Shown one piece after another: positions 17,359-62,892 of a stretch of DNA of 64,000 nt. Source of the stretch: an uncultured Verrucomicrobiae bacterium (GTDB taxonomy: Bacteria > Verrucomicrobiota > Verrucomicrobiia > Limisphaerales > Palsa-1400); NCBI GenBank assembly GCA_963707025.1, contig CAVPOM010000006.1, positions 608,001-672,000 on the forward strand. The letters are read 5' to 3'. The notes below the pieces were generated by a model that was not told the DNA's origin, made no database searches, and was given only the letters and a program-made list of their open reading frames with translations. Positions within the stretch are counted from its first letter, which is position 1; each line of letters opens with the position of its first letter. Position numbers and translations under genes: made by a program.

Positions 17359-20054
17359 ATGCCGCTGATTTGTTTGAACTGCAAGCGCCTGCGGCCTGCC
17401 AGCCTGCTGATGCTGGCATGGCTGGTGGGTTCGGACCTCGCCCCGGCCCAAACCAATCGGACCTGGATCGGCTCCGTCAGCAGCGATTGGTTTAATGCCA
17501 CCAACTGGACGCCCGCCGGTGTCCCGGCGTCCAACGACGTCGTCAACTTCACCAACGGCACCCTCGCCCTGACCGCGCCGGTCACGATCAACGGCCAGTT
17601 TAACTGGACTGGGGGAACGTTGAGCGGGAATCCCTTGACGATTGCGACCAATGGGCTGATGACCGTCAGTGGCAGCGCCACCCTCTTCCTGGAGAATTCG
17701 CTGACCAACGCGGGGACGGTGGTGATGACCAACAGCGGCAGGCTGGAGGTGAGCTATGCCAGCGTTTTCGGCTATTTCGGGCTGATCGAGAACCTGCCGG
17801 GCGCGCTGTGGGACATCCAGAACGACCAGGTTATGACCCCTTACTACGCCGGTCCGGCCTATTTCCACAACGCCGGCATACTGCGCAAATCGGGCCAGTC
17901 CGGCGCGACCACGATCTACGTCCCCTTCAACAACTCCGGCAGTGTGACGGCGCTGCAGGGCATGCTGGATTTCAATGGCGGCGGGACGCTGGCCGGGACC
18001 TTCACTGCCAGCAATGCGGCCTCCATCCTTTTTTCCGGAGGCGAGTTCACCAACTCCGTGCCGGCCACTGTCAGCGGGCCGGGTGTCGTCCAGTCCTGGG
18101 GGACAATCTGACCCTGCTGACGGATGTGATACCGAATCTGCCGATGGTGAACGGCAATCTCATTCTGGGCCCGGGTTTCCAAGGCGGCACCATCACCGAT
18201 CTGACCCTGGCCGGGTCCACGCTCTTGAGCACCAACACCGTCACGGGCGCCTTCACCTGGAGCGCCGGCACACTGGCCGGTCCACTGAACATCGCCACCA
18301 ATGCGCTGCTGACCATCACTGGCAGTGCCACCCATTACATGGACAATCCGCTGACCAACGCGGGGACGGTGGTCATGACCAACAGCGGCGGCCTGATCGT
18401 GAGCTACTCCAGCGGTGCGGGCTATTTCGGTGTGATCGAGAACCTGCCGGGCGCGCTGTGGGACATCCAGAACGATCAGAGCATTTCCCCTTACTACCTC
18501 GGGCCGGCCTATTTCCACAACGCCGGCACTCTCCTCAAATCGGGCCACACCGGAACGACCACGATCTACGTCCCCTTCAACAACTCCGGCAGTGTGACGG
18601 CGCTGCAAGGCACGCTGGATTTCAATGGCGGCGGGACGCTGGCCGGAACCTTCACTGCCAGCAATGCGGCCTCCATCCTTTTTTCCGGAGGCGATTTCAC
18701 CAACTCCGTGCCGACGACGATGAGCGGGCCGGGTGTGGTGCGGTTGACGGGAGGCACTCTGACGCTGCTGACGGATGAGATAGCCAATTTGCCGCTGGTT
18801 AACGGCAACCTCATTCTGGGCCCCGGCTTCCAAGGCGGCACCATCACCAATCTGACCCTTTCCGGGTCCATGCTCGTGAGCACCAACACTGTCACGGGCG
18901 CCTTCACCTGGATGGCCGGCACGCTGGCCGCTCCCCTGACCATCGCGAGCAATGGGCTGCTGACTCTCGGCGGCAGCGCCACCCATTACCTGGAGAATAC
19001 GCTGACCAACGCTGGGACGGTGGTCATGACCAACAGCGGCGGCCTGGTCACGAGCTACCTCGCCTCTTTCGGCTATTTCGGGCTGATCGAGAACCTGCCG
19101 GGCGCGCTGTGGGACCTCCAGAACGACCAGAGCATCTATAACAACGAACTCGGTCCGGCCTATTTCCACAATGCCGGCACTCTCCTCAAATCGGGCCAGA
19201 CCGGCGCGACCACATTCTACATCCCCTTTACCAACTCCGGCACGGTGACGGTTCTAAAGGGGACGGTGGCGTGGAACGGCGGTTTTACTCCGGCGGGCGG
19301 CGAACTCCTTTTTGGTTTGAGCGGTCCGGCCAGCTTCGGGCAGATGAGTATTTCGGGCAATGCGACCCTGGGCGGCACTGTGGGCGTGATTTGGCTTAAT
19401 GGATTTGTGCCGGCCAGCGGCAATTCATTTCCCGTGCTCAACTACGGCTCGTACACCGGGATTTTTACCAATACAGATCTTCCCACCGCGGCTCTGTGGC
19501 AAACCAATTACGGCCCCACTACCTTTACCATCTCCGTCGCCACCATCAACAAGCTGGTCTTCACCACCGAACCAATGGGAGGGAAGCTGACCAATGAGGT
19601 CCTGGCGCCGGTGGTGGTGCAGGTCGAAGACCCCGCCGGCAACCCGGTGGCGACCAATGGCCTGGCGGTGACGCTTTCCTTGGCCAGCGGCAGCGGCCAA
19701 TTGAGCGGGACGCTGACTCAGAACACCGACCCCGCCGGCCAGGCCACCTTCAGCGATCTGAGCATTAGTCTGGTTGGGGCAAAAACACTTCGCGCTTCGT
19801 CACCGGAGTTGACGGCGGGGGCGAGCACGGTGTTTGGGATTGTGCCTCTAATCGGAACACTCTGGACGCGCAACGGTATCGAGCTGCAGTTAAATGGCAC
19901 GAACAGTCTGGGATCCACCATCATCTACGCTTCCACGGACCTGAGTTCCTGGACACCCATTTACACCAATGCGCCCACCAATGGCGTCATCACATTTCTC
20001 GATCCTGCTTCGACGAATTTCCCGCGGCGGTTTTATTACATCGAGCAGCCGTGA
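17359..20054 (+). CDS. Secreted Thr/Gly/Asn-rich beta-helix-like repeat surface protein, split by a 1-nt frameshift near 18094
   Basis: ORFs 17359..18111 and ~18095..20054 share a 217-aa repeat (LTNAGTVVMTNSG...ENLPGALWDIQNDQ...YFHNAG); ends in ASTDLSSW...FLDP...RRFYY. Confidence 0.8.
17560..19280 (+). repeat. Intragenic tandem repeat, 651-bp period, about 2.6 copies
   Basis: Anchor CTGACCAACGC(G/T)GGGACGGTGGT at 17701, 18351 and 19002 (spacings 650 and 651). Repeat ends are approximate. Confidence 0.85.
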
Positions 20055-20216
20055 CCACAGCGTTGACCTCCGGTCAAGCCGCCGCGAATTGTTGAAGCCG
20101 GCACCATGCCCGCCCCAATCATTCGCCCTCGCCTCGGCCCACCATGAGGCGATCAAGCTGCGCAAGCGGCTCATACTCCGGCCCTTGCCAAAACCCGCAT
20201 TTTTCCGCATTTTTCG

Positions 20217-20244
20217 TTGACAAAACTGCCTTAAATGCTAAAAT
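20217..20244 (+). promoter_or_regulatory. Sigma70-type promoter
   Basis: TTGACA, 16-nt spacer ending in TGc, then TAAAAT; about 285 nt upstream of the 20529 CDS. Confidence 0.65.
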
Positions 20245-20528
20245 GCGAGCGGTGAGGATGGGCAAGGCAACAGTGGAATCAGACGGCGACGGGACCAAGA
20301 CGGGCTTCCCCCATTTATCCCATGCCACTTGCCGCGCCGCCCCGCCAACTCCCGCCGCTGCATCGTCCGGCGGCTGCTCCCAATTCCGCTAAAGTCCCGC
20401 CCCAAAGCGTCCGTTGATAATGGGAGGAAGCGCGCTTGGGCGCGATTGGCTGTTTCCACAACCGCCGGTTTGCGCCGGCGGGCTGTCCTGCTTTGTCGCA
20501 GCGCAGAGCAAAGGCAGGGGCCTGTCAA

Positions 20529-22247
20529 ATGAAGAGTTTATATGCATGCAAATTCTGCCTGGCGCTGGCGGCTGTGCTTTCGATGACCGTCCGCGACGCG
20601 CCCGCTGCCAACATCGTGGCGTTATATACCTTCACCAATACACTGCCGGGCGGCGTGGATGGCGGCACTCCGTTGGGGGGTCTGATTCAGGCCGGCAACG
20701 GGGTTCTTTACGGAACCACCGCCAACGGGGGGAGCAACAATGGGTACGGGACGCTTTTCAAGATCACGACCAACGGCGTTTTCACCCCTTTGTACACGTT
20801 CAACGGCCTTGCCAGCGATGGCAGCACACCCTGCGCCGGCCTGTTGCAAGGGACCAACGGCAACTTTTATGGCGCCGCTTCCCAGGGTGGATCCAACGGT
20901 TATGGATCGGTCTTCAAACTCACTTCCGCCGGCGCGTTCACCGAGTTGTACGGCTTCACGCGGATACGCGGCATCAACCTGACCAATGCCGATGGCGCAA
21001 ATCCCGCCGCGCCTTTGGTCCAGGGAACCAACGGCAATTTTTACGACACCGGCCCGCAGGGCGGGACCAACGGCAATGGGGCGATCTTCGAGATCACGGC
21101 CGCCGGCGCGTTGAGCAGGCTGCATTCCTTCACCAACGCCGCGGAAGGCCAGAATCCGGGCGCGCTGTTGCAAAGCGCCAATGGTTTGATTTACGGAACG
21201 ACGACCAACGGCGGGAGCAACGGCTGCGGGACGATCTTCAAGATGACCTCCAGCGGAGTATTGACACCTCTCTACTCGTTCACCAACGGCGTGGACGGGG
21301 CGCATCCCGGACCCGCCTTGGTGCAAGCCACCAACGGAGTTCTTTACGGGACAGCCTGCGCCGGCGGCGCCAACGGTTGCGGCACGATTTTTCAAATCAC
21401 CACCAACGGAGCTTTCACGCCCTTGTATTCCTTTGCGCCCAACGGGCAGGCGGGACCGGGACTGGCCACCAATGCTGACGGACTCTATCCCGGCAGCCTG
21501 GTGCAAGGCACGGGTGGAACCTTCTATGGCTTCGCCCAGTTCGGAGGATTGAACGGCACCGGAACCTTGTTCCAGTTCAGTACGTCCGGGGGTCTGACCG
21601 TGCTCTATACGTTCCCGGTCGGATCACTGGGCATGAACGGCGTGACGAACCTCGAGGGCGCCGATCCTGCCGGCATCGTGCTGGACACCAATGGGACAAT
21701 CTATGGGACCACGCGGACGGGCGGGGCCAATGGTTTTGGCACCGTCTTCCAAATGGGGTTGCCGCCGCAGATCCTCAGCCAGCCGGCCAATCTTTTCCTG
21801 GCCTTGGGCAGCACGGCCAAGTTTGCCATGACCGCGTCGGTCCCGGCTTGCCAGTGGCAATTCAGCGGCGCCGACATTCCGAATGCCACCAACCTGACCG
21901 TGACCAATTTCAACATTCAAATTTCCAATGCCGGCCCCTACCAGGCAGTGCTGTGCAATGCGTTCGGGTCGGTGACCAGTGCGGTGGCCTGCCTGAACAT
22001 TACCAATGTGCCCGTTTCTTTTGCGACCGGCGCGGGAGCCATGCAATCTGGCGGGGGCCAGTGCAGCCTTTTGCTCACCAACTTGACAGGGCAGGGGACG
22101 GTGGTGGTAGATGCCTCTGCCGATTTGAAGGCCTGGATACCGATCCTGACCAACCCGCCGGCTTTTGGCCAATGGCCCTGCACGGATTGGGCCGCGGGAG
22201 GGTGTTCGAACCGATTCTATCGCGCCCGCGTCATCCCGGCACCCTGA
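20529..22247 (+). CDS. Secreted GloVer (Gloeo_Verruco) repeat protein with Ig-like and C-terminal domains
   Basis: Signal peptide; about 7 repeats of LxQxxNGxLYGTxxxGGxNGxGTxFxITxxGxxTxLYxF; PPQILSQP Ig domain; terminal ASADLKAW...NRFYRA. Confidence 0.85.
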   Translation: MKSLYACKFCLALAAVLSMTVRDAPAANIVALYTFTNTLPGGVDGGTPLGGLIQAGNGVLYGTTANGGSNNGYGTLFKITTNGVFTPLYTFNGLASDGSTPCAGLLQGTNGNFYGAASQGGSNGYGSVFKLTSAGAFTELYGFTRIRGINLTNADGANPAAPLVQGTNGNFYDTGPQGGTNGNGAIFEITAAGALSRLHSFTNAAEGQNPGALLQSANGLIYGTTTNGGSNGCGTIFKMTSSGVLTPLYSFTNGVDGAHPGPALVQATNGVLYGTACAGGANGCGTIFQITTNGAFTPLYSFAPNGQAGPGLATNADGLYPGSLVQGTGGTFYGFAQFGGLNGTGTLFQFSTSGGLTVLYTFPVGSLGMNGVTNLEGADPAGIVLDTNGTIYGTTRTGGANGFGTVFQMGLPPQILSQPANLFLALGSTAKFAMTASVPACQWQFSGADIPNATNLTVTNFNIQISNAGPYQAVLCNAFGSVTSAVACLNITNVPVSFATGAGAMQSGGGQCSLLLTNLTGQGTVVVDASADLKAWIPILTNPPAFGQWPCTDWAAGGCSNRFYRARVIPAP

Positions 22248-23939: not shown

Positions 23940-25330
23940 CTAGAACCCAACGTCCTCTCCCTTGGGCTTCAAACTGATGAGGTAGGCCACCATATCGTCC
24001 AGTTCGGCGTCCTTGATGACGGCGCCCCAGGCGGGCATGTAGAGGGGCGGCGGCGGGCGTTTTGGGTCAAGCGCGGGAATTTCGCGCTGGCCTTTCAGGA
24101 TGCGGTTTTTCAACTCCGCTTTCGTGTAGCCCTCGGCGACGCGAATCAAGCCCGGCACTTGTTCGGCGGTTTTGGCGTTCGGATTGGGCACGCCACCCTT
24201 GGCCTCGGCGCCGTGGCAGCCGGCGCAACCGTATTTGCGGTAGGTTTCGCGGCCGCGCTCCGCCGGATCCATCAACGAGGGCAAGCTGGACGCCAGGTTG
24301 CGTTCCCGCAGGTGCAGGAGAAACTCCGTCAGCGCGCGGGCTTCGGTTTCGGTGAAGCCAAATCTGGGCATGACCGAGCCGGGGGTGACGCTCTGGGGAT
24401 CGCGGAAATGCTGCAACATCCACTCCGGCGAGCGGCGCAGGCCCACATCGTCCAGCACCGGACCGACCTTGCCGCCCTGGCCGGCCGACGGTGTGGCAGC
24501 CAATGCAACCCTTTTGCTGGAATAAACGCTGGCCTTCGTCGGCGCTGGGGATGACTTTCATGGAAGCGTAATAGCCCGGCGCCGCTTCGCCGGTCAGGCT
24601 CAACATGAACAAAACAATCGCTTCGAGGTTCGTCTCGGAAAATTTCTGTGGCGGCATGGCGGAGCCGGGCGTGACGGCGGCGGGTGCCAGGAAATGTTTC
24701 TTCAGCCATTCCGGCGCGCGCCGCGTTCCGACCTTGTCGAGTTCCGGCCCGATGTTGCCGCCCGCGCCGCCGAGTTTGTGGCAGCCGCGGCAACCACTCG
24801 CCTCAAAGAGCTGCTGGCCCTGTGCCAGTTCCGGTGCGGCCGGATTGTCGGCCGCCTGGTGGCACTGGCCGCAGGAGGCCTGGATGTATTGCAACGGCAG
24901 CATGGGCTGATCCCAATGCGGCCACCGCGCCATGAGCGTCCGCCGTGGTGGTGGCGCGGCCCTGGCCGCGATGGCAGATGGTGCAGCCGAATTTTTCAAA
25001 GGGGTGCTGCTCGTGCTGGGGATGGTAGGCCAGGGGTTGCGGGTAGCCGCCGTAGCTGGGGTCTTCCACCGCCAGATGGCAGGTCGTGCAGCGATCCACC
25101 CGGTTGAGTTCCGGCAGGAGAATTTGCCGGACTTCGACCGGCGTGCTCTCGGCGATGGCTTTTTGCTGCGGTGTGACGGCCCGGCGAATTTCTTCCTGCA
25201 CGAATTTGCGCTGGTAATCCTTCCATTCGCGATACTCGTCCTTGTAGTAGCCCAGGACGACCAGTCCGCCGACCAGCAAGCCCAGGAAGGTGAACCATCC
25301 GTAAAACCTGAGCATGGCGCCGTGGTTCAT
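23940..25330 (-). CDS. Membrane-anchored hexaheme cytochrome c (2 frameshifts, ~24930 and ~24485)
   Basis: Stitching three ORFs gives an N-terminal TM and six CxxCH motifs (CTTCH, CTICH, CGQCH, CRGCH, CIGCH, CAGCH). Length is 3n+2, consistent with two single-base insertions. Confidence 0.82.
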
Positions 25331-25331
25331 G

Positions 25332-26623
25332 TCAGCGGCCTTCCGTCATGGCGGGCGGTTGCCGCCAAGGCTCTACCCAGCCCCAATTCGGTCCGCGGAA
25401 AAAGGTGCCGATGACGGTAAAGACAATGGCGGCCAGCAGGCAGATCGTGAAGATCGTGTTGGCCACCACCCGCTCGCGGGCAAACCAGCGGCCCACCCCC
25501 GCCCGTTGGCGGTCCAGGTAAGGCAGCAGCAGCAGCGCCGTCACCAGCAAGCCCGGGACGACCACCCCGCCCCAGAAGGCGGAATAGCTGACCAGTTCCT
25601 GCAGGCCGAGAAAGTACCACGGCGCCTTGGCCGGATTGGGCGGATGGATCGGGTTGGCAAATTCCTCCAGCGGCGCATTCCAAAAAATCGCCAGGAACAA
25701 CACCACCGCCGTCACCAGCAGGAACAGCAGAATCTCGCGAAAGACCAGATGCGGCCACGAGAACACTTCGTCCTCCGGGTTCTTGCCCACCTGCGGGGTG
25801 GTGCCGCGTGCCAGTTCCATCAGCCCGTAGCTCTTGTTCGTCGGCAACTGGCCGGTCGGAATTTGCTGCGACGACCTCGTCCGCTTCGTCCGGCCGCGAC
25901 AACCCGCCGTCCTTGCGCACGCGCCACAAATGAACCGCCACCATCAATACAGCCAGCGTCGGCAGCACGATCACATGCAGCGCGTAAAACCGGGTCAGCG
26001 CCTCCTGCCCGACCACGTTGCCGCCGAGCAAAACGATATTTCAGCTTCAGCCCGATGACCGGGGCGTAGCCGGCGATGTTCGTGCCGACGGTGATCGCCC
26101 AGAACGCCAGTTGATCCCACGGCAGCAGGTAACCCGTGAAACTCAGGCCCAGCGTCAGCAGAAAGAGTCCGACGCCGATGACCCAGTTGAATTCGCGCGG
26201 CCGTTTGTAAGCGCCGGTGTAAAAGACGCGGCACATGTGCAGCAGCACGAACAGCACCATCAGGTGCGCGGCCCAGCGATGCATGTTGCGGACGAGCAAT
26301 CCGGCGGAGACCACAAACTGCAAATCCTTCATGGTGTTGTAGGCGCTGGCGGTGCTCGGCACGTAATAAAACATCAGCAGCACGCCGGTGCCGATGAGGA
26401 TGAGGAACAGGTAGAGCGAAATCAGTCCCAGTCCGAGCGAGTAACCGGCCTTGAGGGAATGTTGGTGGACCTTGGCCGGCTGGAGGTGCAGCAGGAAACT
26501 GGAGGTCATGGCCTGCGACCGCTCCAGATTGCTCTGGGGCAGGCCGACGCGGAAGATGGAGCGGCCCACGCGCGTGCGCGCCAGTTTTTGCCAGAGGCGG
26601 GTGAGGAGGGGCGCGTTCATCAT
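25332..26623 (-). CDS. Cytochrome b of a Rieske/cytb complex, b6-like part apparently fused to subunit IV (2 frameshifts, ~26035 and ~25870)
   Basis: [12 protein letters not shown]...[32 protein letters not shown]...VHLW, then [15 protein letters not shown]. Confidence 0.85.
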
Positions 26624-27112
26624 CAAGCTTTGGTCGGCAGAACCAGGTATTTGTCGGCGGCGACCGTGCTGATTTTTGTCCACCAGCAGCCGGTTGTCCT
26701 TGCTCAGCGTCACCTGAAACCAGGCCAGAGCGCGGGGCGCCGGCCCGCTTTTCACGCTGCCCTGGTCGTCAAAAACGCTGCCGTGACACGGGCAGTGATA
26801 GCCTTTTTCAGCGCGGTTGACCGTGCAGCCCAGGTGGGTGCAATTGGCCGAGAGGCAGCGGTAAGTGTTGCCCTGGCGAACCAGAAAAACCCGTTCCTCC
26901 TCCAGAAACGTCACCGAGCCATCGGGAAAATCATCCGGCTTGCCGGCCTTGAAAACCTGGCTCGGCTCGAAGAGCACGTTCGGCACCAGAAACCGCACCG
27001 CGCCGGCGGCGGACAGGGCCATGGCGAAGGTGCCGGCCAGCCAGCCGAGGGTGAGCTGGAAAAATCCGCGGCGCGAAACGCCGTTTTGGCCTGGGGGCGT
27101 GGCAGGGTTCAT
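26623..27112 (-). CDS. Rieske 2Fe-2S protein with Tat signal (1 frameshift, ~26670)
   Basis: SRRGFF Tat motif, [22 protein letters not shown]. Removing one base gives ...[13 protein letters not shown] with a TGATG overlap into cytochrome b. Confidence 0.88.
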
Positions 27113-29038
27113 CAGGCGGGCACAAGTTCGACTCGTTCCATCGTGATCGCGCCCGTCGGACAACGCACCGCGCACAGGCCGCACCGGATGCACCGGGTTT
27201 CGTCCTTGATGATCGCCGCCTTGTTCGCCCGGGAGCGGGCACGCGGCCGTAACGGGCGAGAAAGGCCGCCTGCAAATTCTCGTTGCCGCGCAAATGGGCG
27301 GCATCCACCAGGCGCAGGCAATACTCCGGGCAAACGTCCGCGCAGCCGCCGCACAGAATGCACTCGTCGCCGTTGAACACCGGGCCAACGTGGCATTTGA
27401 GGCAGCGATCCGCCTGGCGGCGCGCGGCGGCTTCCGGATAAGTTTTTTCCACTTCGGCGATCCCGATGCGGCGATCCATCGGCAGCGTCGGCGGGGCCTG
27501 CCGCGCGAATTTTTCGTAATCCGGCTTCATCCGGTATTGCTGGGTGTTGAAAATGGTCACGCGGGCCTGCTGGGGTTCGGCGGGCACCGTGCCGGTGAGA
27601 AATTTGGCGATGGATTTGGCCGCGCGCTTGCCTTCGGCCACCGCGGTGATGATGATGCGCGGGCCAAACGCCACGTCGCCACCGGCGAAAACATCGGGCC
27701 GTGATGTGGCCATGGTCAGCGGATCGGTTTGCAGCGTGCCGCGCGGCGTCAGCTTCAAATTGTCGTGCGGGCTGGATCCACGCCAGATCGGCCGCCTGGC
27801 CGATGGCCAGCACCACGGTGTCGCAGTCCACCGTTTCCTCGCTGCCTTCGATGAACTGCGGGTTGAAACGGCGGTTCTCGTCGAACACCCGGCTGGCCTG
27901 GATGAGTTCGATGCCGGTGACTTTGCCGTTCAGACCGAGAATCCGTTTCGGGCCGAAGCGGGTGTGCAGTTGGATGCCTTCTTGTTCGGCTTCCTCGATT
28001 TCCTCGCGGGCCGCCGGGATTTCGTCCAGGCTTTCCAGGCAATACATGTGGACCTCCGGCACGCCGCTTGCGGATGGCTTCACGCGCCACGTCCAGCGCC
28101 AGCCGCACTTCATCGGGCGCTTCCGGTCCTTGGCGGTCAATTCTTCCAGCGCGGCGGCGGCCTGATGCAAGGCGACGCGCAATTCGGCTTCGCTCATGCC
28201 GGCGAACTTCTCGGCCTGGCGCACGACCGAGCGCGCCACGTCGAAGGCCACATTGCCGCCGCCGATGACCACGACTTTGCGGCCGAGGGAAACCCGAAAA
28301 CCGAGGTTGACATTGAGGAGAAATTCGATGGCGCGCAGCACCCCGTCGTTTTGCACGCCTTCGATGGAAAGCTCGCGGCTCTTGTGGGCGCCGATGCCCA
28401 GGAAGATGGCTTCGTAGCCCTGTGCTTCAGATCGGCCAGCAAGAAATCCCGGCCCAGCCGGCGAATTCAGGCGAATCTCCACCCCCAGGGATTCGATGGC
28501 CCCGATCTCGGCGCGGATGATGTCCCGGGGCAGCCGGTATTCGGGCACGCCCAGCACCAGCATGCCCCCCGCGACGTTGTGCGCCTCGAAGACCGTCGGC
28601 GAAAAACCCATCAGGGCCAGTTCATGCGCGCAGGACAAGCCCGGCCGGGCCGGCGCCGATGACCGCGATCTTGCGTCCGCCGCCGGCCCGTTCGCGTCGC
28701 GCGTCGCGCAGTTGGGGATAAACGCGGCCCAGATCAAAGTCGTCGGACTCGACACCGAACTTTTCGCAGACGAAACGTTTCAAGGCACGAATGGAAACGG
28801 CGGCGTCCAGCGCGCCGCGACGGCATTTGGCCTCGCAGGGCGCGGCGCAAACCCGGCCGCAGATCGAGGCGAACGGGTTGGGGGTGCGGGCGATGACGTA
28901 GGCGTCATCATAACGGCCCTCCGCAATGGCCTGCACGTAGCCGCCAGAGTCCGTGCGCACCGGGCAGCCCTCGCGGCAGAGCACCTGCCGGGAGAAATAA
29001 TTCACGTCCGGCAGTTCGACTGAATAGGTCGTGGGCAT
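27112..29038 (-). CDS. GltD/NfnB/DsrL-like Fe-S flavoprotein NAD(P)H oxidoreductase with C-terminal 2x[4Fe-4S] domain (at least 7 indels)
   Basis: CREGCP...[56 protein letters not shown] and [12 protein letters not shown] are spread across frames. Confidence 0.85.
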
Positions 29039-29064
29039 TTTCAGCCGTTCGGTTGGCTGGCGAA

Positions 29065-29560
29065 TTATTTGCCGTCGTACTTGTCGTGAAGTTCCTTGAT
29101 CTTGGTTTCCGCGGTCGTTTTTTCTTCCGGCGTGGCCTTGGCGAGTTTGTCGTCCACCATGGCCTTTTTGCGCACGCTGGAGTCATAGGCCAGGAACTCG
29201 TAGATCTTCTTGCCGTCGGCCGCGTTGATGTTCGAACCGGGCTTGTTCATCATGCGCTTGATGTAGCGGGACCATTCGTCGGGGAGCGCGTAGTCCGAGT
29301 TGATGGGGCGGCTCAACTTGTGGCACTGCGAGCATTTCTGGGTGAAAAGCTGCGTAGTTGTCCTTGATGACATCCGGGTATTTGGAAACATCAACCGTCG
29401 CGGGGCCTTTCTCGAAGCGCTCAACGCGCGCCTTGGTTTCAGCATCCATTGTCTGCGCGGTGGCGCGCCACAGGCCCGCGCCGGAGATGCCGAGCACAGC
29501 CGCCCCGGCGAGGGCGGCGGCCAGTCTTGTTGTCATTTTCATAAGAGTCATTTTGTTCAT
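29065..29560 (-). CDS. Periplasmic monoheme cytochrome c (1 frameshift, ~29355)
   Basis: Signal peptide in ORF 29183..29560 joins FTQKCSQCHKLSRPINS...EWSRYIKRM in ORF 29065..29445. Confidence 0.8.
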
Positions 29561-30910
29561 TTAGAATCCGTAGGAGAGTTGAAACACAAACGAAGTGGGA
29601 GGCAGGGCGCCGGGACCGCGGCTGTGCATCCATTCGTAGTCGCCCTCGAACCACAACGTGTTGGAAAAGTAATAGACATAGCCTGCGGTGTAGCGTTCTG
29701 TTTTGGTTCCCTGGCCGTCGTTTTCGCAATCAAAGCGGCCGACCAACTCGATATTGTTGATGTAGGGAAGATCCAGATTCAGGCCGGACAGTTTGTAGCC
29801 CGCCTGGGTCCACCATCCATGGGGATCGAGTTGGCCCAGGTCGTCGCTGCCGTACCACGTTTGGATATACTCGCCCTTCAGTTCAAAGTTGGGGCTGAGG
29901 TGGATGGCGGCATCCAGCACGCCGGCCGACCAGAGGTGGCTCCCGTTATCGCTCCAAGAGCCGGTCTGGCCTGAAACCCCCAGTTCCAGATCATAGTGAG
30001 GCGCCCAGGGGTAAAACCAACCGAGGCGGCCGCCGCCGCTGGGATCCGCATGCCAGTTCGGCGTGTCGCCCACATTGCCGCCCAGATCCAGCGCGCTGGC
30101 GTTGGCCATCGAGTTGCTGGCGCCGGAGGACGGTCCGTTGACCCCGTAAACCGAATAGGTGACCATCTGCCCGGACTCACCCACCGGGACGGCCCCGCGC
30201 AACTGGACGCCCACGCCGCTGGCCGGCAGAACGTCCCGAACCAGCGGGTCATCCGGGATCTTGTTGAGCCAGCCGGCGCCCCGCTCGCTATACGTGCCCA
30301 GCGGCAGCAGCATGTCGCCCGCCACCACCGTCACGTAATCGTTCCAGAGATAATCCAACTGGCCGAAACTCATGCTAAAGGAGGTCGAACTGCCTGGAGC
30401 ACGGTTGCCGTTCTGATCCACGTTGTTGTTCAGAATGGTGTCGAATCCCGCCTCGACCAGCACGTTGTCGCTGGCGCGGAACAGGAAAATGGGAGCAAAA
30501 TCAGCCAGGGCAAAGGCGCTGTGCTGCCCGGCCGTTTTTCCAAATTGCGCCTCGGCATCCCCGACAATGGTGAAGTTGTGCATCGGCCCCTGGGAGGCGT
30601 TGACGACGGGATAGGTGGATTGCACCTTGGCCACATTGTCGGCCGTCTGTTGCGCGTTGGTGGCGGCGGTTTTGGTTTCGCCCAACTGCTTTTGCAATTG
30701 CTGGATGACTTGTTGGTCTTGTTCGTGCGCCTTCTGGTCCTGCTCGTGGGTCTGCTCGAGCTTCTGGACTTTGTCGCCCAATTGTTCGACCATTTTCTTC
30801 AAGGCATTGAAGTCGTCGGTGCTCACTTGGGCCGAGGCCCGCTGGGGCAGAACCGCCCCCAGCGCGCAGGCGGCGGCCAAAGCTCCAAGAATCAGGGAAG
30901 TTTTTTTCAT
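29561..30910 (-). CDS. Outer-membrane beta-barrel (porin) with N-terminal coiled coil
   Basis: Signal peptide, Q/K/E-rich heptad region, amphipathic aromatic-rich strands, C-terminal FQLSYGF (BAM-type signal). Confidence 0.8.
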   Translation of the reverse strand: MKKTSLILGALAAACALGAVLPQRASAQVSTDDFNALKKMVEQLGDKVQKLEQTHEQDQKAHEQDQQVIQQLQKQLGETKTAATNAQQTADNVAKVQSTYPVVNASQGPMHNFTIVGDAEAQFGKTAGQHSAFALADFAPIFLFRASDNVLVEAGFDTILNNNVDQNGNRAPGSSTSFSMSFGQLDYLWNDYVTVVAGDMLLPLGTYSERGAGWLNKIPDDPLVRDVLPASGVGVQLRGAVPVGESGQMVTYSVYGVNGPSSGASNSMANASALDLGGNVGDTPNWHADPSGGGRLGWFYPWAPHYDLELGVSGQTGSWSDNGSHLWSAGVLDAAIHLSPNFELKGEYIQTWYGSDDLGQLDPHGWWTQAGYKLSGLNLDLPYINNIELVGRFDCENDGQGTKTERYTAGYVYYFSNTLWFEGDYEWMHSRGPGALPPTSFVFQLSYGF

Positions 30911-30927
30911 GGGTCAAATCCTCTGGT

Positions 30928-31338
30928 TTAGTTGCTGCTCTCCTCCTGGAGGTACTTGAGCACCTCCCTGGCCTGCGGCGCGGGAAGGTTGGCCCGGACG
31001 CGCATGTGCGTCAGGACCGTCTTCCACTGGGACGGCGTGAATTCGGTGGGATACCGTTCCGCGTGGCAACGGCTGCAGTTGATGGCATACAAATCGGCGC
31101 CGGTGAGCTTTTTTGCCATCTGCTTCTCTTTGGTGTCTTTGGTCTCCTTGTTGGCGCCGGCGGCCGCGGTGTTCGTGGATTGCGGGTCGGCGCAGGCGAC
31201 CAACACGCCGGACACCACGCAGATGGCCGCCGCCAGGGCCGCGAGACTGAGCCAGGCCCGCAGCCGCAACTTCAATGGATGGGAACGCTTCATGGTTGTC
31301 CTTGGGTTGAGGTTATTCATCGCCAGGTTGCATTTCAT
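30928..31338 (-). CDS. Small monoheme cytochrome c, possibly a lipoprotein
   Basis: Hydrophobic leader ending LVAC, GADLYAINCSRCH, QWKTVLTHMRVRANL (candidate Met/His axial ligand). Start uncertain. Confidence 0.8.
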   Translation of the reverse strand: MKCNLAMNNLNPRTTMKRSHPLKLRLRAWLSLAALAAAICVVSGVLVACADPQSTNTAAAGANKETKDTKEKQMAKKLTGADLYAINCSRCHAERYPTEFTPSQWKTVLTHMRVRANLPAPQAREVLKYLQEESSN

Positions 31339-31470
31339 GGTGCCCTTTCAAGCATGGTGAAATGATTAAGCTGGCGCAGAGAAAGCCGCTACTGGCCGGT
31401 TGGCTTTTGCTTATGGGCTATTGCGGTGGGGACAGCCGGGCGCCGCCTTGGGCGCGCCGGGCAGGCGGGA

Positions 31471-32358
31471 TTAAAAAGGCAATTGCGCGCGCAACGTCTC
31501 GCGGTATTCCGTCGGCGCCATCCCGACAATGCGCTTGAACACGCTGTTAAACTGGGGAATGGAGCCGAAGCCGGCCGCGTAAACCACTTCGGAGATCCGC
31601 AGCGAGGAATCCACCAGCAGCGTCTTGGCTTTTTCCACGCGCACCCGCGCCACGTATTCGGTCAGCGTCATGCCCGCGCCTTTTTTGAAAAGCTTGCAGA
31701 AATAAAACCGGCTGACATGCACATGCCGGGCCACTTGCGCCAGCACGATCGGCTCCTCCACGTGGGTTTGGACAAACTGCTTGGCGCTGACCACGGCCAC
31801 CGGTTCTTCATTGGCGCTGGCCAAAACCTGGCGGCTGGCGTAATCGGTCAGATATTGCGCGAACACGGTCAGGAGTTGAATGATCGCCTCGAATCGTTCC
31901 GCATCCACCACCGGCGTCTCGAAATAAGCCTTGCGCGCCTTCTTCTCCCACTCGGCGCTTTGCCCGAGCAGGGCGGCCACCATTTTGAAATCGCGCTCTG
32001 TTGGCTCGCGGCGGAACACCTGGCCGCTCAACAGCGTGGCGACGTGCCGGCCCCCGATCACCACCGGCACCGCCACATCGGTCAGGCCGCAAAAACAATT
32101 GATCTGTTGCGCCGTTAATTTCTTCCCGGCCAGGCGCTGGACTCGAATCTGCGTTTCCAGGCACGCATCGCATCCCGAAGGCGTGCCCGCCGCCAACCGG
32201 CAAAAAGCGTTCTCATCCTTTCCCAGATTCAGCCGGTGCCTGGGTTCGCCCGGCGGCACCACCTTGAGCGACGCCCCGGTGGCTTTGCGGAACGCTGCCT
32301 CGTAAAACTCAATCACGGGCAGGCGCGCCAGGTTTTCAAATTCCACTTGCTTCACCAT
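31471..32358 (-). CDS. AraC-family regulator with PocR-type sensory domain
   Basis: Cys-rich N-domain (NAFC...CDAC...CFCGLTDVAVPV...GQV) plus double HTH (RISEVVYAAGFGSIPQFNSVFKR). Confidence 0.88.
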   Translation of the reverse strand: MVKQVEFENLARLPVIEFYEAAFRKATGASLKVVPPGEPRHRLNLGKDENAFCRLAAGTPSGCDACLETQIRVQRLAGKKLTAQQINCFCGLTDVAVPVVIGGRHVATLLSGQVFRREPTERDFKMVAALLGQSAEWEKKARKAYFETPVVDAERFEAIIQLLTVFAQYLTDYASRQVLASANEEPVAVVSAKQFVQTHVEEPIVLAQVARHVHVSRFYFCKLFKKGAGMTLTEYVARVRVEKAKTLLVDSSLRISEVVYAAGFGSIPQFNSVFKRIVGMAPTEYRETLRAQLPF

Positions 32359-60934: not shown

Positions 60935-61837
60935 ATGTACATCGCCAGAACCAGCCCATCTGTTACCCAGCGCGACGAAAAATCCCGCGGCGCCCCGGCC
61001 GCAACCGCTTTCGGCTGCCCGCGCAATTTTCTCGACAACCGCTTCGTCTATACGGTGGTGTCGGCGCGGGCCCGGGGCCTGGCCATCGGCATCAACATGA
61101 ACCCGGATCGGTTCTGCAATTTTGACTGCCTTTATTGCGAGGTGGACCGGAAGCTGCCCGCCGCCGAACGGGAGTTGGACGTGGGGGTGATGGCGGAGGA
61201 ATTGGACAAGACACTCTGCTTGGTGCGGTCGGGCAAGATCCGCGAGCATGCGGCTTACCGCGAGTTGAGCGACGAATTGCTGCAATTGCGCCATGTCGCC
61301 TTGAGCGGCGACGGCGAACCGACCCTCTGTCCCAATTTCGCCGAGGCCGTCCAGGTGGTCGTCCATGTGCGGGCGCGCAGTCCCCATTCGTTTTTCAAAC
61401 TGGCCTTGATTACCAACGGCACCGGGCTGGATTTGCGGCCGGTGCAGGGCAGCCTGCAATACTTTACGCACGACGATGAGGTTTGGATCAAGCTCGACGC
61501 CGGCACGCAAGATTACATGAACCGCGTCAACCGCGGCGCGGTGCCGCTGGAAAAAGTCATTGCCAACATCGTCCTGGTGGGGCGGCAGCGGCCCGTCATC
61601 ATCCAAAGTTTGTTCCCGTCGGTCCTCGGCCAGGAACCGCCCCAGGAAGAAATTGATGAGTATATTTTGCGGTTGAACGACCTAAAACAAGCCGGGGCGC
61701 GCATTTCGCTGGTGCAAATTTATTCGGCGACCCGGCCCATCGCCCATCCCGACTGCGGCCATCTGCCGCTGAAAAAGCTTTCCCAGATCTGCCAGCGGAT
61801 CAAGGCGGAAACGGGCTTGAGAGCGGAAGTCTTCTGA
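60935..61837 (+). CDS. Radical SAM protein of unknown function
   Basis: CNFDCLYC, SGDGEPT, LITNGT, KLDAG. Confidence 0.85.
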   Translation: MYIARTSPSVTQRDEKSRGAPAATAFGCPRNFLDNRFVYTVVSARARGLAIGINMNPDRFCNFDCLYCEVDRKLPAAERELDVGVMAEELDKTLCLVRSGKIREHAAYRELSDELLQLRHVALSGDGEPTLCPNFAEAVQVVVHVRARSPHSFFKLALITNGTGLDLRPVQGSLQYFTHDDEVWIKLDAGTQDYMNRVNRGAVPLEKVIANIVLVGRQRPVIIQSLFPSVLGQEPPQEEIDEYILRLNDLKQAGARISLVQIYSATRPIAHPDCGHLPLKKLSQICQRIKAETGLRAEVF

Positions 61838-62004
61838 GCGCGCCGGGCGGCGGGCGCGGGCCCCGGTCTAAGGAATATCCCTAGACCTTCTAGTTGCTTT
61901 TCCCCAGACGCGTCTGGCAGGATGCCTGATTGTTGGCGGAGCGTGATCGGTGCTAAATTGCTCACATGACAACAAATTTTGTGCAGCCAAACGGGGACAA
62001 GCCC

Positions 62005-62892
62005 ATGAACCGCCGCGACAACAAAGGCCTGATCGAGAGCCTGATCAACTCGAAAATCTTTCAGGATTACGAGAAGGCGTTCAGCGAAACGACCGGCCTG
62101 CCCGTCTCCTTGCGCCCGGTGGAATCGTGGCAGTTGCCGCACCACGGCAAGCGCCACGAAAATCCCTTGTGCGCCATGCTGGCGGAAAAGAGCCGGTCTT
62201 GCGCAACCTGCCTGCAAATGCAGCAAAAGCTGTCGGAAAGCGCCCACTTTGAACCCGCCACGGTGACCTGCCAGTTGGGATTGGTGGACACGGCCGTGCC
62301 GGTTCGTTTGGGCGAGCAGTTGATCGGCTTCCTCCAAACCGGCCAGGTGCTGCGGAAGAAGGCCACGCCCTCCCAAGTCGGGCGCACCGCCCGGCTCATC
62401 GCTGAATGGGGTCTGCAGGTGAGCGGGGAACGGCTGAAAAGCCTCTATGCTTCAACCCGGGTGTTGTCGTCCAAACATTACCAGGCCATGGTCCAACTGC
62501 TCAGCATCTTCGCCCAGCACATTTCGGTGGTGAGCAACCAGATTGTGGTGGGCCGGGAACACGCCGAATCGCCGGTGATCCGGAAGGCCAAGGAGTTTAT
62601 TGTCGAGAATCAGGCGGAGGATCTTTCCCTGGGCCAGGTGGCCAAGGCGGTCAACACCAGCGTCTTCCACTTCTGCAAAATGTTCAAGAAAGCGACTGGC
62701 TTGAACTTCACCGAGTATGTGTCGCGCGTGCGGGTGGAAAAGGCCCGCAATCTTCTGCTCAATCCCAATTTGCGCATCAGCGAAATCGCTTATGAAGTCG
62801 GCTTCCAGTCGCTCACCCATTTTAATCGCGTTTTTAAGAAAATCACCGGCCAGTCCCCCACCGATTACCGCGGCCAACTGGCCCCGGCGTGA
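62005..62892 (+). CDS. AraC-family regulator with PocR-type sensory domain
   Basis: NPLC...CATC...CQLGLVDTAVPV...TGQV plus AraC HTH; paralogue of 31471..32358. Start could be 61966. Confidence 0.88.
   Translation: MNRRDNKGLIESLINSKIFQDYEKAFSETTGLPVSLRPVESWQLPHHGKRHENPLCAMLAEKSRSCATCLQMQQKLSESAHFEPATVTCQLGLVDTAVPVRLGEQLIGFLQTGQVLRKKATPSQVGRTARLIAEWGLQVSGERLKSLYASTRVLSSKHYQAMVQLLSIFAQHISVVSNQIVVGREHAESPVIRKAKEFIVENQAEDLSLGQVAKAVNTSVFHFCKMFKKATGLNFTEYVSRVRVEKARNLLLNPNLRISEIAYEVGFQSLTHFNRVFKKITGQSPTDYRGQLAPA

Follow-up and report, generated by a model that had tools for sequence, protein, structure and literature searches.

A stretch of DNA from an uncultured Verrucomicrobiae bacterium—64,000 nucleotides long, taken from contig CAVPOM010000006.1 and hereafter called the window—carries eight co-oriented genes on its minus strand, between positions 23940 and 32358. 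They comprise the gene of a PocR-AraC regulator and a seven-gene operon that encodes, in this order, an exported monoheme cytochrome c (CytC1), an outer-membrane porin, a second exported monoheme cytochrome c (CytC2), an iron-sulfur (Fe-S) flavoprotein, a Rieske protein, a cytochrome b, and a hexaheme cytochrome c. The operon is real, conserved, and uncharacterised, is built from known kinds of parts, and is a stable union of two modules, a porin cassette and an inner Rieske module, each of which also occurs alone. We propose, with a little less than even confidence, that the cassette is a Cyc2-like device split into separate proteins, in which a heme at the mouth of the pore would come within reach of a small solute, and that the Rieske module would supply electrons from quinol and NAD(H). 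The operon would provide a testable route for exchanging electrons with small solutes, iron chelates for example, with no wire through the outer membrane.

The genes are tightly packed. The intergenic spacings, in gene order, are 17, 0, and 26 nt, followed by TGATG overlaps at the flavoprotein/Rieske and Rieske/cytochrome b junctions and a last gap of 1 nt, so the earlier note was right to describe co-oriented genes with gaps of 0–26 nt or TGATG overlaps. It was likewise right that the run lies directly behind the regulator (31471..32358; Pfam PF10114 and PF12833), whose stop codon is 132 nt from the first ATG of cytC1, and that the seven genes include no terminal oxidase or reductase. Scans for promoters and terminators were uninformative (one promoter-like site against 1.5 expected). 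A glycosyltransferase gene behind the operon was rejected as a member, because an unrelated gene intervenes in the relative G003. The source assembly carries indels in this region, which are treated below, and the protein-level work was therefore done on intact relatives.

How widely is this arrangement kept? In a search of relatives, a porin match was found in 18 of 61 genomes, the source genome included. Seven of the 19 stretches fetched from relatives carry the complete operon with its regulator, and two more are cut by contig ends; a second scan, of 18 genome loci that overlap with the first set and are not summed with it, gave several further complete operons. The named records with close homologs bear the titles Verrucomicrobiota, Limisphaerales, or Spartobacteria. 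In metagenomes, we analysed the best 80 of 501 confirmed loci. Upstream sequence of more than 60 nt is available for 74 of them, and 73 of these 74 have cytC1 on that side of the porin, the sole miss having 109 nt; the gene content downstream of the porin is variable. Type A, the arrangement of the source operon, accounts for 20 of the 80 loci (nine complete, 11 cut by a contig end). Type B (three loci) has a different Rieske/cytochrome b pair with a CxGG motif and a monoheme cytochrome, without the flavoprotein, and type C (13 loci) has cytC2 and a diheme cytochrome, and often precedes ribH and the genes of an aa3 oxidase. Type D, the largest class with 28 loci, has only a different diheme cytochrome, located downstream in 24, upstream in two, and on the other strand in two. 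The remaining loci are too short to type (14) or have none of these arrangements (two). On a quick, unrooted porin tree of the 64 loci in which the porin is full-length and the type could be assigned, the types are interleaved, with 14 label changes against a minimum of 3, and we draw no order of events from it.

The inner module shows the same independence. In a sample of the phylum, 32 of 401 genomes have a cytochrome b match, and nine of the 16 fetched stretches carry the flavoprotein-Rieske-cytochrome b-multiheme set; the full porin cassette is present, and the operon complete, in two of these nine (L169 and L170), which belong to other classes. The cassette, in turn, also lies beside MopB/FeS/NrfD (ACIII-like) complexes (L057, L239, and L240) and beside an FeS/NrfD pair (L219). 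The synteny check proposed in the earlier note thus found complete copies in seven stretches from relatives, nine metagenome loci, and two genomes of other classes. Its view of the porin pair and the Rieske/cytochrome b genes as one system stands in that their joint synteny recurs, and fails in that the two halves are not obligate partners, each being found alone.

The operon regulator precedes most, though not all, copies of the operon. The cysteines C53, C63, C66, and C88 of its PocR sensor domain are kept in 26–28 of 28 distinct homolog rows, and this conservation makes a metal or Fe-S sensor possible. A second PocR-AraC gene, whose product is 37% identical to the operon regulator, follows a radical SAM gene elsewhere in the window (60935-62892), and a radical SAM gene 68% identical to that one adjoins the cassette regulator in locus L023; the pair and this neighbour together hint at a shared regulon. 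Beside one complete copy, nrfH/nrfA-like genes diverge from the regulator (L169:13823-16082); a specific tie to nitrite reduction was rejected, as these genes adjoin that copy only. Two other complete operons adjoin a second Rieske/cytochrome b pair and a 9-heme cytochrome (L050:17548-20937 and L053:11105-14497), and L050 also has a NapC-like hexaheme gene and cytochrome c maturation genes upstream. The flavoprotein has no match on a plasmid at E 1e-60.

The porin (29561..30910) has a signal peptide, and an AlphaFold2 model built from 140 sequences (mean predicted local distance difference test score, pLDDT, of 85) predicts a periplasmic coiled coil followed by a 16-strand barrel. The best structural match is OprP (2o4v; Z 27.8, root-mean-square deviation, rmsd, of 3.1 over 306 residues); MtrB (6r2q_B) ranks only 41st (Z 12.2, rmsd 9.0). 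Many of the most conserved porin residues lie in a loop, L3, that folds into the barrel. The sequence has no relative among solved structures and matches no NCBIfam family and no Ext model. A barrel of 16 strands leaves no room for a multiheme wire, and the soluble partners carry one heme each; the earlier note's "trans-envelope conduit", taken in the Mtr sense, is therefore not borne out.

Is this porin truly a partner of cytochromes? Three observations tie them together. First, there is the adjacency of cytC1 described above. Second, cytC1 lies beside the porin in all seven loci that score at least 262 bits, and a single weak cytC1 match was found among the 37 loci scoring 140 bits or less (44 loci in all, from the phylum and class scans), although this split is partly circular, as the porin profile was built from such cytC1-flanked sequences. 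Finally, 13 of 150 porin representatives (the best 150 of 2781 hits) have a CxxCH domain fused to their N-terminus, and all three fused domains tested match the Pfam cytochrome c family. These domains are mostly of a different class I type, unlike CytC1, and neither the source porin nor any of its 120 closest homologs contains CxxCH. The adjacency and the fusions thus uphold the link between porin and cytochromes that the earlier note drew. On a plasmid of Legionella anisa (L238:4705-8891), a three-heme cytochrome is fused to a member of the porin family and is followed by genes for a cytC1-type diheme and a triheme cytochrome, and in L247-L249 a gene for a di-heme oxidoreductase immediately precedes that of a distant porin relative (a Pfam DHOR match in the one tested).

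The two small cytochromes differ in kind. CytC1 (30928..31338, with a likely start at 31293) has a heme domain of about 60 residues of the TorC-C-terminal/DHC-like type (TIGR02162 C-terminal region, E 2e-8), in which C88, C91, H92, W105, and M112 are invariant in 89 rows. This domain is basic and the porin barrel is net acidic (36 Asp and Glu against 14 Lys and Arg). A lipoprotein anchor for CytC1 was rejected, since the lipobox-like cysteine is not conserved. CytC2 (29065..29560, with an indel near 29353; 164 aa where intact, in L021) has its best PDB sequence matches in 3a9f and 7uea_C (E 5e-5), which are presumably the green-sulfur cytochrome PscC, an acceptor of electrons from a Rieske/cytochrome b complex.

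The flavoprotein (27112..29038; Pfam Fer4_20, Pyr_redox_2, and Fer4; 640 aa in relatives) is a cytoplasmic FAD-dependent NAD(P)(H) oxidoreductase of the GltD/NfnB type; Fe-S ligands are present near its N-terminus, and its C-terminal part is a 2x[4Fe-4S] domain. Its top PDB matches are NfnA 9n5u and 9bov/9bp5 (E 3e-83). An acidic residue stands after the second nucleotide-binding strand, where it presumably favours NAD over NADP. Arg168 is invariant in nine rows and may be equivalent to the arginine beside the bifurcating flavin of NfnAB; non-bifurcating relatives of the GltD type share the fold. The operon encodes no Nfn-type small subunit as a bifurcation partner, and no search aimed at the rest of the genome was made. 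A CxxCH in the flavoprotein was rejected as a heme site, because the protein is cytoplasmic and the motif is part of a conserved cysteine motif. The NAD region bears an insertion of 40–50 residues (L021:9994-11913; about 28230-28090 in the window), which seemingly duplicates the helix that comes after the glycine motif; L173 has a shorter version, and L171 and L174 have none.

The Rieske [2Fe-2S] protein (26623..27112; PF00355, with an indel near 26672) begins with a twin-arginine signal, and its best PDB matches are 9rk4 (E 2.5e-22) and 9rk3 (E 3.5e-17). Together with the matches of the flavoprotein, these sustain the likeness to the anammox NAD(P)-linked Rieske/cytochrome b complexes that the earlier note had pointed out. 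The two positions that tune the cluster potential are Ser and Phe. The Ser/Tyr and Ser/Phe patterns of 9rk4 and 9rk3 fit the descriptions of Kuste4569 and Kustd1480, respectively, and Kustd1480, with Ser/Phe, was measured at +335 mV (PMC12954380).

The cytochrome b (25332..26623) joins a b6 part to subunit IV in one chain, of 428 aa in intact relatives, and reaches 268 bits with NCBIfam ExtP (cut-off 290) and 82 bits with ExtQ (cut-off 150). It has four heme-binding histidines, a PWY-type quinol site lacking the Glu, and an extra N-terminal histidine, His45. The fused sequences have no Cys at the column of the CxGG motif for heme cN, which is present in type B and in L179. His45, together with an RK motif, occurs in all 14 related cytochrome b rows and in none of the four flavoprotein-less rows, a pattern consistent with the bridging heme b that has been proposed in Kuenenia, if the positions are equivalent to those described in PMC12954380. 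The membrane-anchored hexaheme cytochrome c (23940..25330) has six CxxCH motifs, and its C-terminal domain is 62%, 48%, and 43% identical to the cytochromes of type C, type B, and L057, and 48% identical to that of the porin-less copy L168.

On these grounds we propose the following mechanism. In the inner membrane, a dimeric Rieske/cytochrome b complex would oxidise menaquinol. The high-potential electron would pass through the Rieske cluster to the hexaheme cytochrome, and the low-potential side would be wired to the cytoplasmic flavoprotein, probably by a bridging heme b that His45 would bind; the flavoprotein would exchange electrons with NAD(H), either through the quinol bifurcation proposed for anammox bacteria, which would reduce NAD+, or by taking in electrons from NADH, which would suit a heterotroph, and the sequence is compatible with both. 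In the outer membrane, the narrow OprP-fold pore, with the monoheme cytochromes docked at its periplasmic mouth, would act as a split counterpart of Cyc2. The solute that enters the pore would be small and redox-active, with an iron chelate or a small quinone as the likeliest candidates, and would exchange an electron with CytC1, and CytC2 and the C-terminal domain of the hexaheme cytochrome would connect the pore side to the Rieske complex. The gene order, the conservation, the fold class, the cofactor motifs, and the modular partners on which this proposal builds come from the data; the docking, the substrate, the direction of flow, the bridging heme, the NAD specificity, and any bifurcation are inferred.

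In which direction would the electrons flow? The neighbours of the porin-less inner modules suggest an answer. In L171 and L174 the module runs on into the cbb3-type genes ccoN and ccoO, in L173 it is followed by a gene for a NapA-like enzyme (269 bits, below the cut-off), and in L168 it is preceded by a multiheme-FeS-NrfD set; these four are the porin-less copies with listed open reading frames (ORFs). Since such modules feed terminal enzymes, the cassette appears to take the position of the acceptor, and by this analogy the net flow would be outward, most likely under low oxygen in a sugar-degrading heterotroph. The three ties between porin and cytochromes, the acidic barrel and basic CytC1, and a fold class matching that predicted for Cyc2 all support the proposed mechanism. 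So do the several kinds of respiratory complex with which the cassette is paired, the pattern of His45 and the RK motif, the use of menaquinone-7 and the reduction of Fe(III) by Limisphaera isolates, and the neighbourhoods of distant porin kin, where FMN-binding, ApbE, PepSY, DtxR, FeoB, or flavodoxin genes point to an iron context (PMC8238504).

Several observations weigh against it. A loop such as L3 is a feature of ordinary solute channels. Type D joins the cassette to a diheme cytochrome, and no inner-membrane complex was found adjoining it, and the inner module lacks a porin in seven of the nine phylum-sample loci that carry it; the type C copies ahead of aa3 oxidase genes fit inward flow. 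The aa3 and cbb3-like oxidases of the source genome could take the electrons of the operon, and iron or humic reduction could be the work of another system, a DmsE-like multiheme cluster located about 70 kb from it. The distant porin kin were chosen by eye from ORF lists. Finally, the Geobacter porin ExtI is described as dispensable for the reduction of Fe(III) citrate (PMC5877670).

The strongest of the alternatives keeps the same wiring and reverses it. Fe(II) or reduced quinones would be oxidised at the pore, and the electrons would pass to an oxidase, with a part driven uphill, via the Rieske complex, onto quinone and NAD+, supplementing heterotrophic growth. The Cyc2-like architecture would serve this direction, the acidic lumen suits cations, and type C cassettes stand co-oriented ahead of ctaA/ctaB/coxA (L066, L075, L078, L097, L127, and others). 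However, inspection by eye revealed the Cyc2 motif, AxPxFAR[QK][TY] before CxxCH, in none of CytC1, CytC2, and the fusions, the inner modules without a porin feed terminal enzymes, and an apparent polysaccharide degrader would have little need for reverse electron flow. We therefore consider inward flow rather unlikely, and retain the outward direction.

Could the porin instead be a bystander? In that case, the Rieske-flavoprotein module would be a low-oxygen complex III or an NADH:cytochrome c oxidoreductase feeding oxidases, the cytochromes would be ordinary carriers, and the porin would be a non-redox channel that is merely co-regulated. Such a role is favoured by the OprP fold with its L3 loop, by the joining of the module to ccoNO in L171 and L174, by the oxidase-cluster genes that follow the complete operons L074 and L095, and by the finding that the operon holds the only Rieske/cytochrome b found in the source genome (G000, 88% complete), which has oxidases elsewhere. 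It leaves unexplained the near-invariant pairing of cytC1 and the porin, with or without the Rieske module, and the 13 cytochrome-porin fusions, and an ACIII-like complex already lies beside the cbb3-like gene of this genome. We regard a plain channel as unlikely.

Iron assimilation, in which ferric chelates would be reduced in the pore for uptake and the cytochromes would replace the flavinylated carriers of distant kin, seems very unlikely. It draws on the neighbourhoods of those kin, and PepSY-flavinylation clusters are tied to iron reduction and assimilation in PMC8238504, in whose passages on them the word porin does not occur. Yet in the ORF lists inspected, we noticed neither an iron transporter gene nor a DtxR/Fur-type gene next to the close homologs, and a system with so many hemes and Fe-S clusters would be a poor answer to iron starvation. 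Among the distant kin, a cluster of an OprP-like porin gene with FMN-binding and ApbE and/or PepSY genes recurs (L194-L218 and L241-L246), often behind a DtxR-type repressor gene or near feoB, and is itself a candidate iron-uptake system.

The source operon contains 14 single-base indels in five genes, relative to the intact copy of G003 (L021; 92% DNA identity): one in cytC2, eight in the flavoprotein gene, one in the Rieske gene, and two each in the cytochrome b and hexaheme genes, with none in the regulator, cytC1, or porin genes. In the same comparison the operon genes show no in-frame stop; the ratio of nonsynonymous to synonymous substitution rates (dN/dS) is 0.07–0.38 across the genes, indicating purifying selection in every one; and rpoB and rpoC of the same assembly are likewise fragmented. 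The indels are therefore assembly errors, and a pseudogene reading was ruled out. That the operon is decaying in the source genome, or is a chance neighbourhood, is highly improbable, despite the 14 indels, given the absence of nonsense codons, the purifying selection, the equal damage to rpoB and rpoC, and a synteny kept across classes.

The window is rich in glycoside hydrolase genes, and the organism looks like a polysaccharide-degrading heterotroph. Limisphaera isolates are described with menaquinone-7 (MK-7), no bc1 complex, and Fe(III) reduction (PMC13608581). The DmsE-like cluster of the source genome (G000:C6:709711-731898; L184 and L185), which lies outside the window, encodes two 9-heme proteins, a DmsE-like cytochrome, a likely barrel protein, two FeS-NrfD sets, and further multihemes, with about 50 CxxCH motifs, and is a candidate Mtr-type conduit like the EET3/EET4 (extracellular electron transfer) clusters of peat; its barrel gene matches no family and is presumably MtrB-like. 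A further DmsE-like cytochrome gene lies beside a long gene (G000:C7:34002-37165), and an 8–9-heme cytochrome is encoded separately (G000:C4:176630-178159). The window also contains two adjacent genes for secreted repeat proteins without a Pfam match (17359-22247), which share a similar short C-terminal domain; one of them is frameshifted and has an internal duplication.

If the proposed exchange with iron chelates or humic quinones occurs, it would constitute an uncounted route of anaerobic respiration in organic soils, where the acceptors are poorly known. The cassette uses monoheme partners and belongs to no curated family, so surveys for multiheme cytochromes or for the Cyc2 motif would miss it. 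We further entertain, as possible though on balance doubtful, a broader interpretation: that the porin and CytC1 represent an undescribed family of small-pore porin-cytochrome oxidoreductases, apart from Cyc2 and Mtr and descended from iron-uptake porins, which joins at least four kinds of inner-membrane complex and here serves as the acceptor for quinol bifurcation or direct NADH oxidation, and so links NAD(H) with dissolved iron or with humic quinones. If so, a single operon would provide this coupling in abundant soil and peat Verrucomicrobiota. The working of the NAD(P)-linked Rieske/cytochrome b complexes has been studied only in slow-growing anammox bacteria; a simpler version in heterotrophs, in which cytochrome b is fused and heme cN is absent, would allow the proposed path through the bridging heme to be examined apart from heme cN.

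How does the operon compare with known systems? The inner module is closest to the Kuenenia stuttgartiensis complexes Kuste4569-4574 and Kustd1480-1485, as described in PMC12954380. In both, the complex is encoded together with an NAD(P) oxidoreductase, and the two oxidoreductases share a fold family (that paper names 9bp5 as a homolog of the anammox subunit); both also have a multiheme cytochrome in place of c1/f—hexa- or octaheme in Kuenenia, with six CxxCH motifs in the source operon. Moreover, the Kuenenia proteins are the closest solved Rieske structures, the Ser/Phe pair is that of Kustd1480, and a candidate histidine for the bridging heme is present. In contrast, Kuenenia has a four-helix cytochrome b with a separate subunit IV and heme cN, and the source cytochrome b is fused and lacks CxGG; the source operon has no HAO-like octaheme, adds an outer-membrane cassette, and belongs to a heterotroph. 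Cytochrome b subfamily G with its clade G′ (Dibrova 2017, PMC5600118) resembles it in that a large conserved operon of unknown function encodes a long cytochrome b together with a cysteine-rich oxidoreductase that binds NAD(P). This likeness is one of operon description, and the sections of that paper drawn on here mention no porin.

The outer-membrane side resembles the iron oxidase Cyc2 (Keffer 2021, 10.1101/228056), which is predicted to have a 16-strand OprP-like barrel and a periplasmic monoheme domain, so that the substrate must enter the pore; Fe2+ is argued there to do so to reach the heme. In Cyc2, the heme domain is fused N-terminally, whereas in the source operon the hemes are on the products of separate genes, of TorC-C-terminal/DHC-like and PscC-like types. 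The Geobacter extHIJKLMNOPQS cluster (PMC5877670; PMC13510729) likewise unites a Porin_O_P-class porin, c-type cytochromes, a Rieske protein, and a cytochrome b, and the nearest NCBIfam models include ExtP, ExtQ, and ExtS, with ExtP and ExtQ scoring below their cut-offs. Unlike the source operon, it is described without a flavoprotein, and its porin serves a periplasmic reduction; the source operon lacks the rhodanese, the ExtKL-type enzyme, and the 10- or 12-heme proteins. MtrAB/PioAB and the peat EET1-4 clusters (10.64898/2026.05.27.727921) share the synteny of porin and cytochrome genes in Verrucomicrobiota. They combine 8–13-heme cytochromes with Mtr-like barrels (26 strands for MtrAB), where the source has 16 strands and monoheme partners, and the soluble multiheme cytochrome that threads an Mtr barrel has no counterpart here, the hexaheme protein being membrane-anchored.

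The earlier note knew of no characterisation of the full combination. In the literature we found neither the seven-gene operon nor the cassette described, although supplements or subscription papers could hold one; a cluster of porin, cytochromes, Rieske, and cytochrome b genes was, however, already known as ext, without the flavoprotein (PMC5877670). The humic-lake and peat surveys cover multiheme conduits and Cyc2 and, as far as they are represented here, not this set (PMC6344600; 10.64898/2026.05.27.727921); the main text of the peat preprint does not contain "cytochrome b", "monoheme", "bc1", or "Cyc2" (10.64898/2026.05.27.727921). Set beside all of these systems, the operon lacks some defining features of each, of Mtr and Ext as well as of the anammox complexes and Cyc2, and what it resembles is an anammox complex joined to a Cyc2-like pore.

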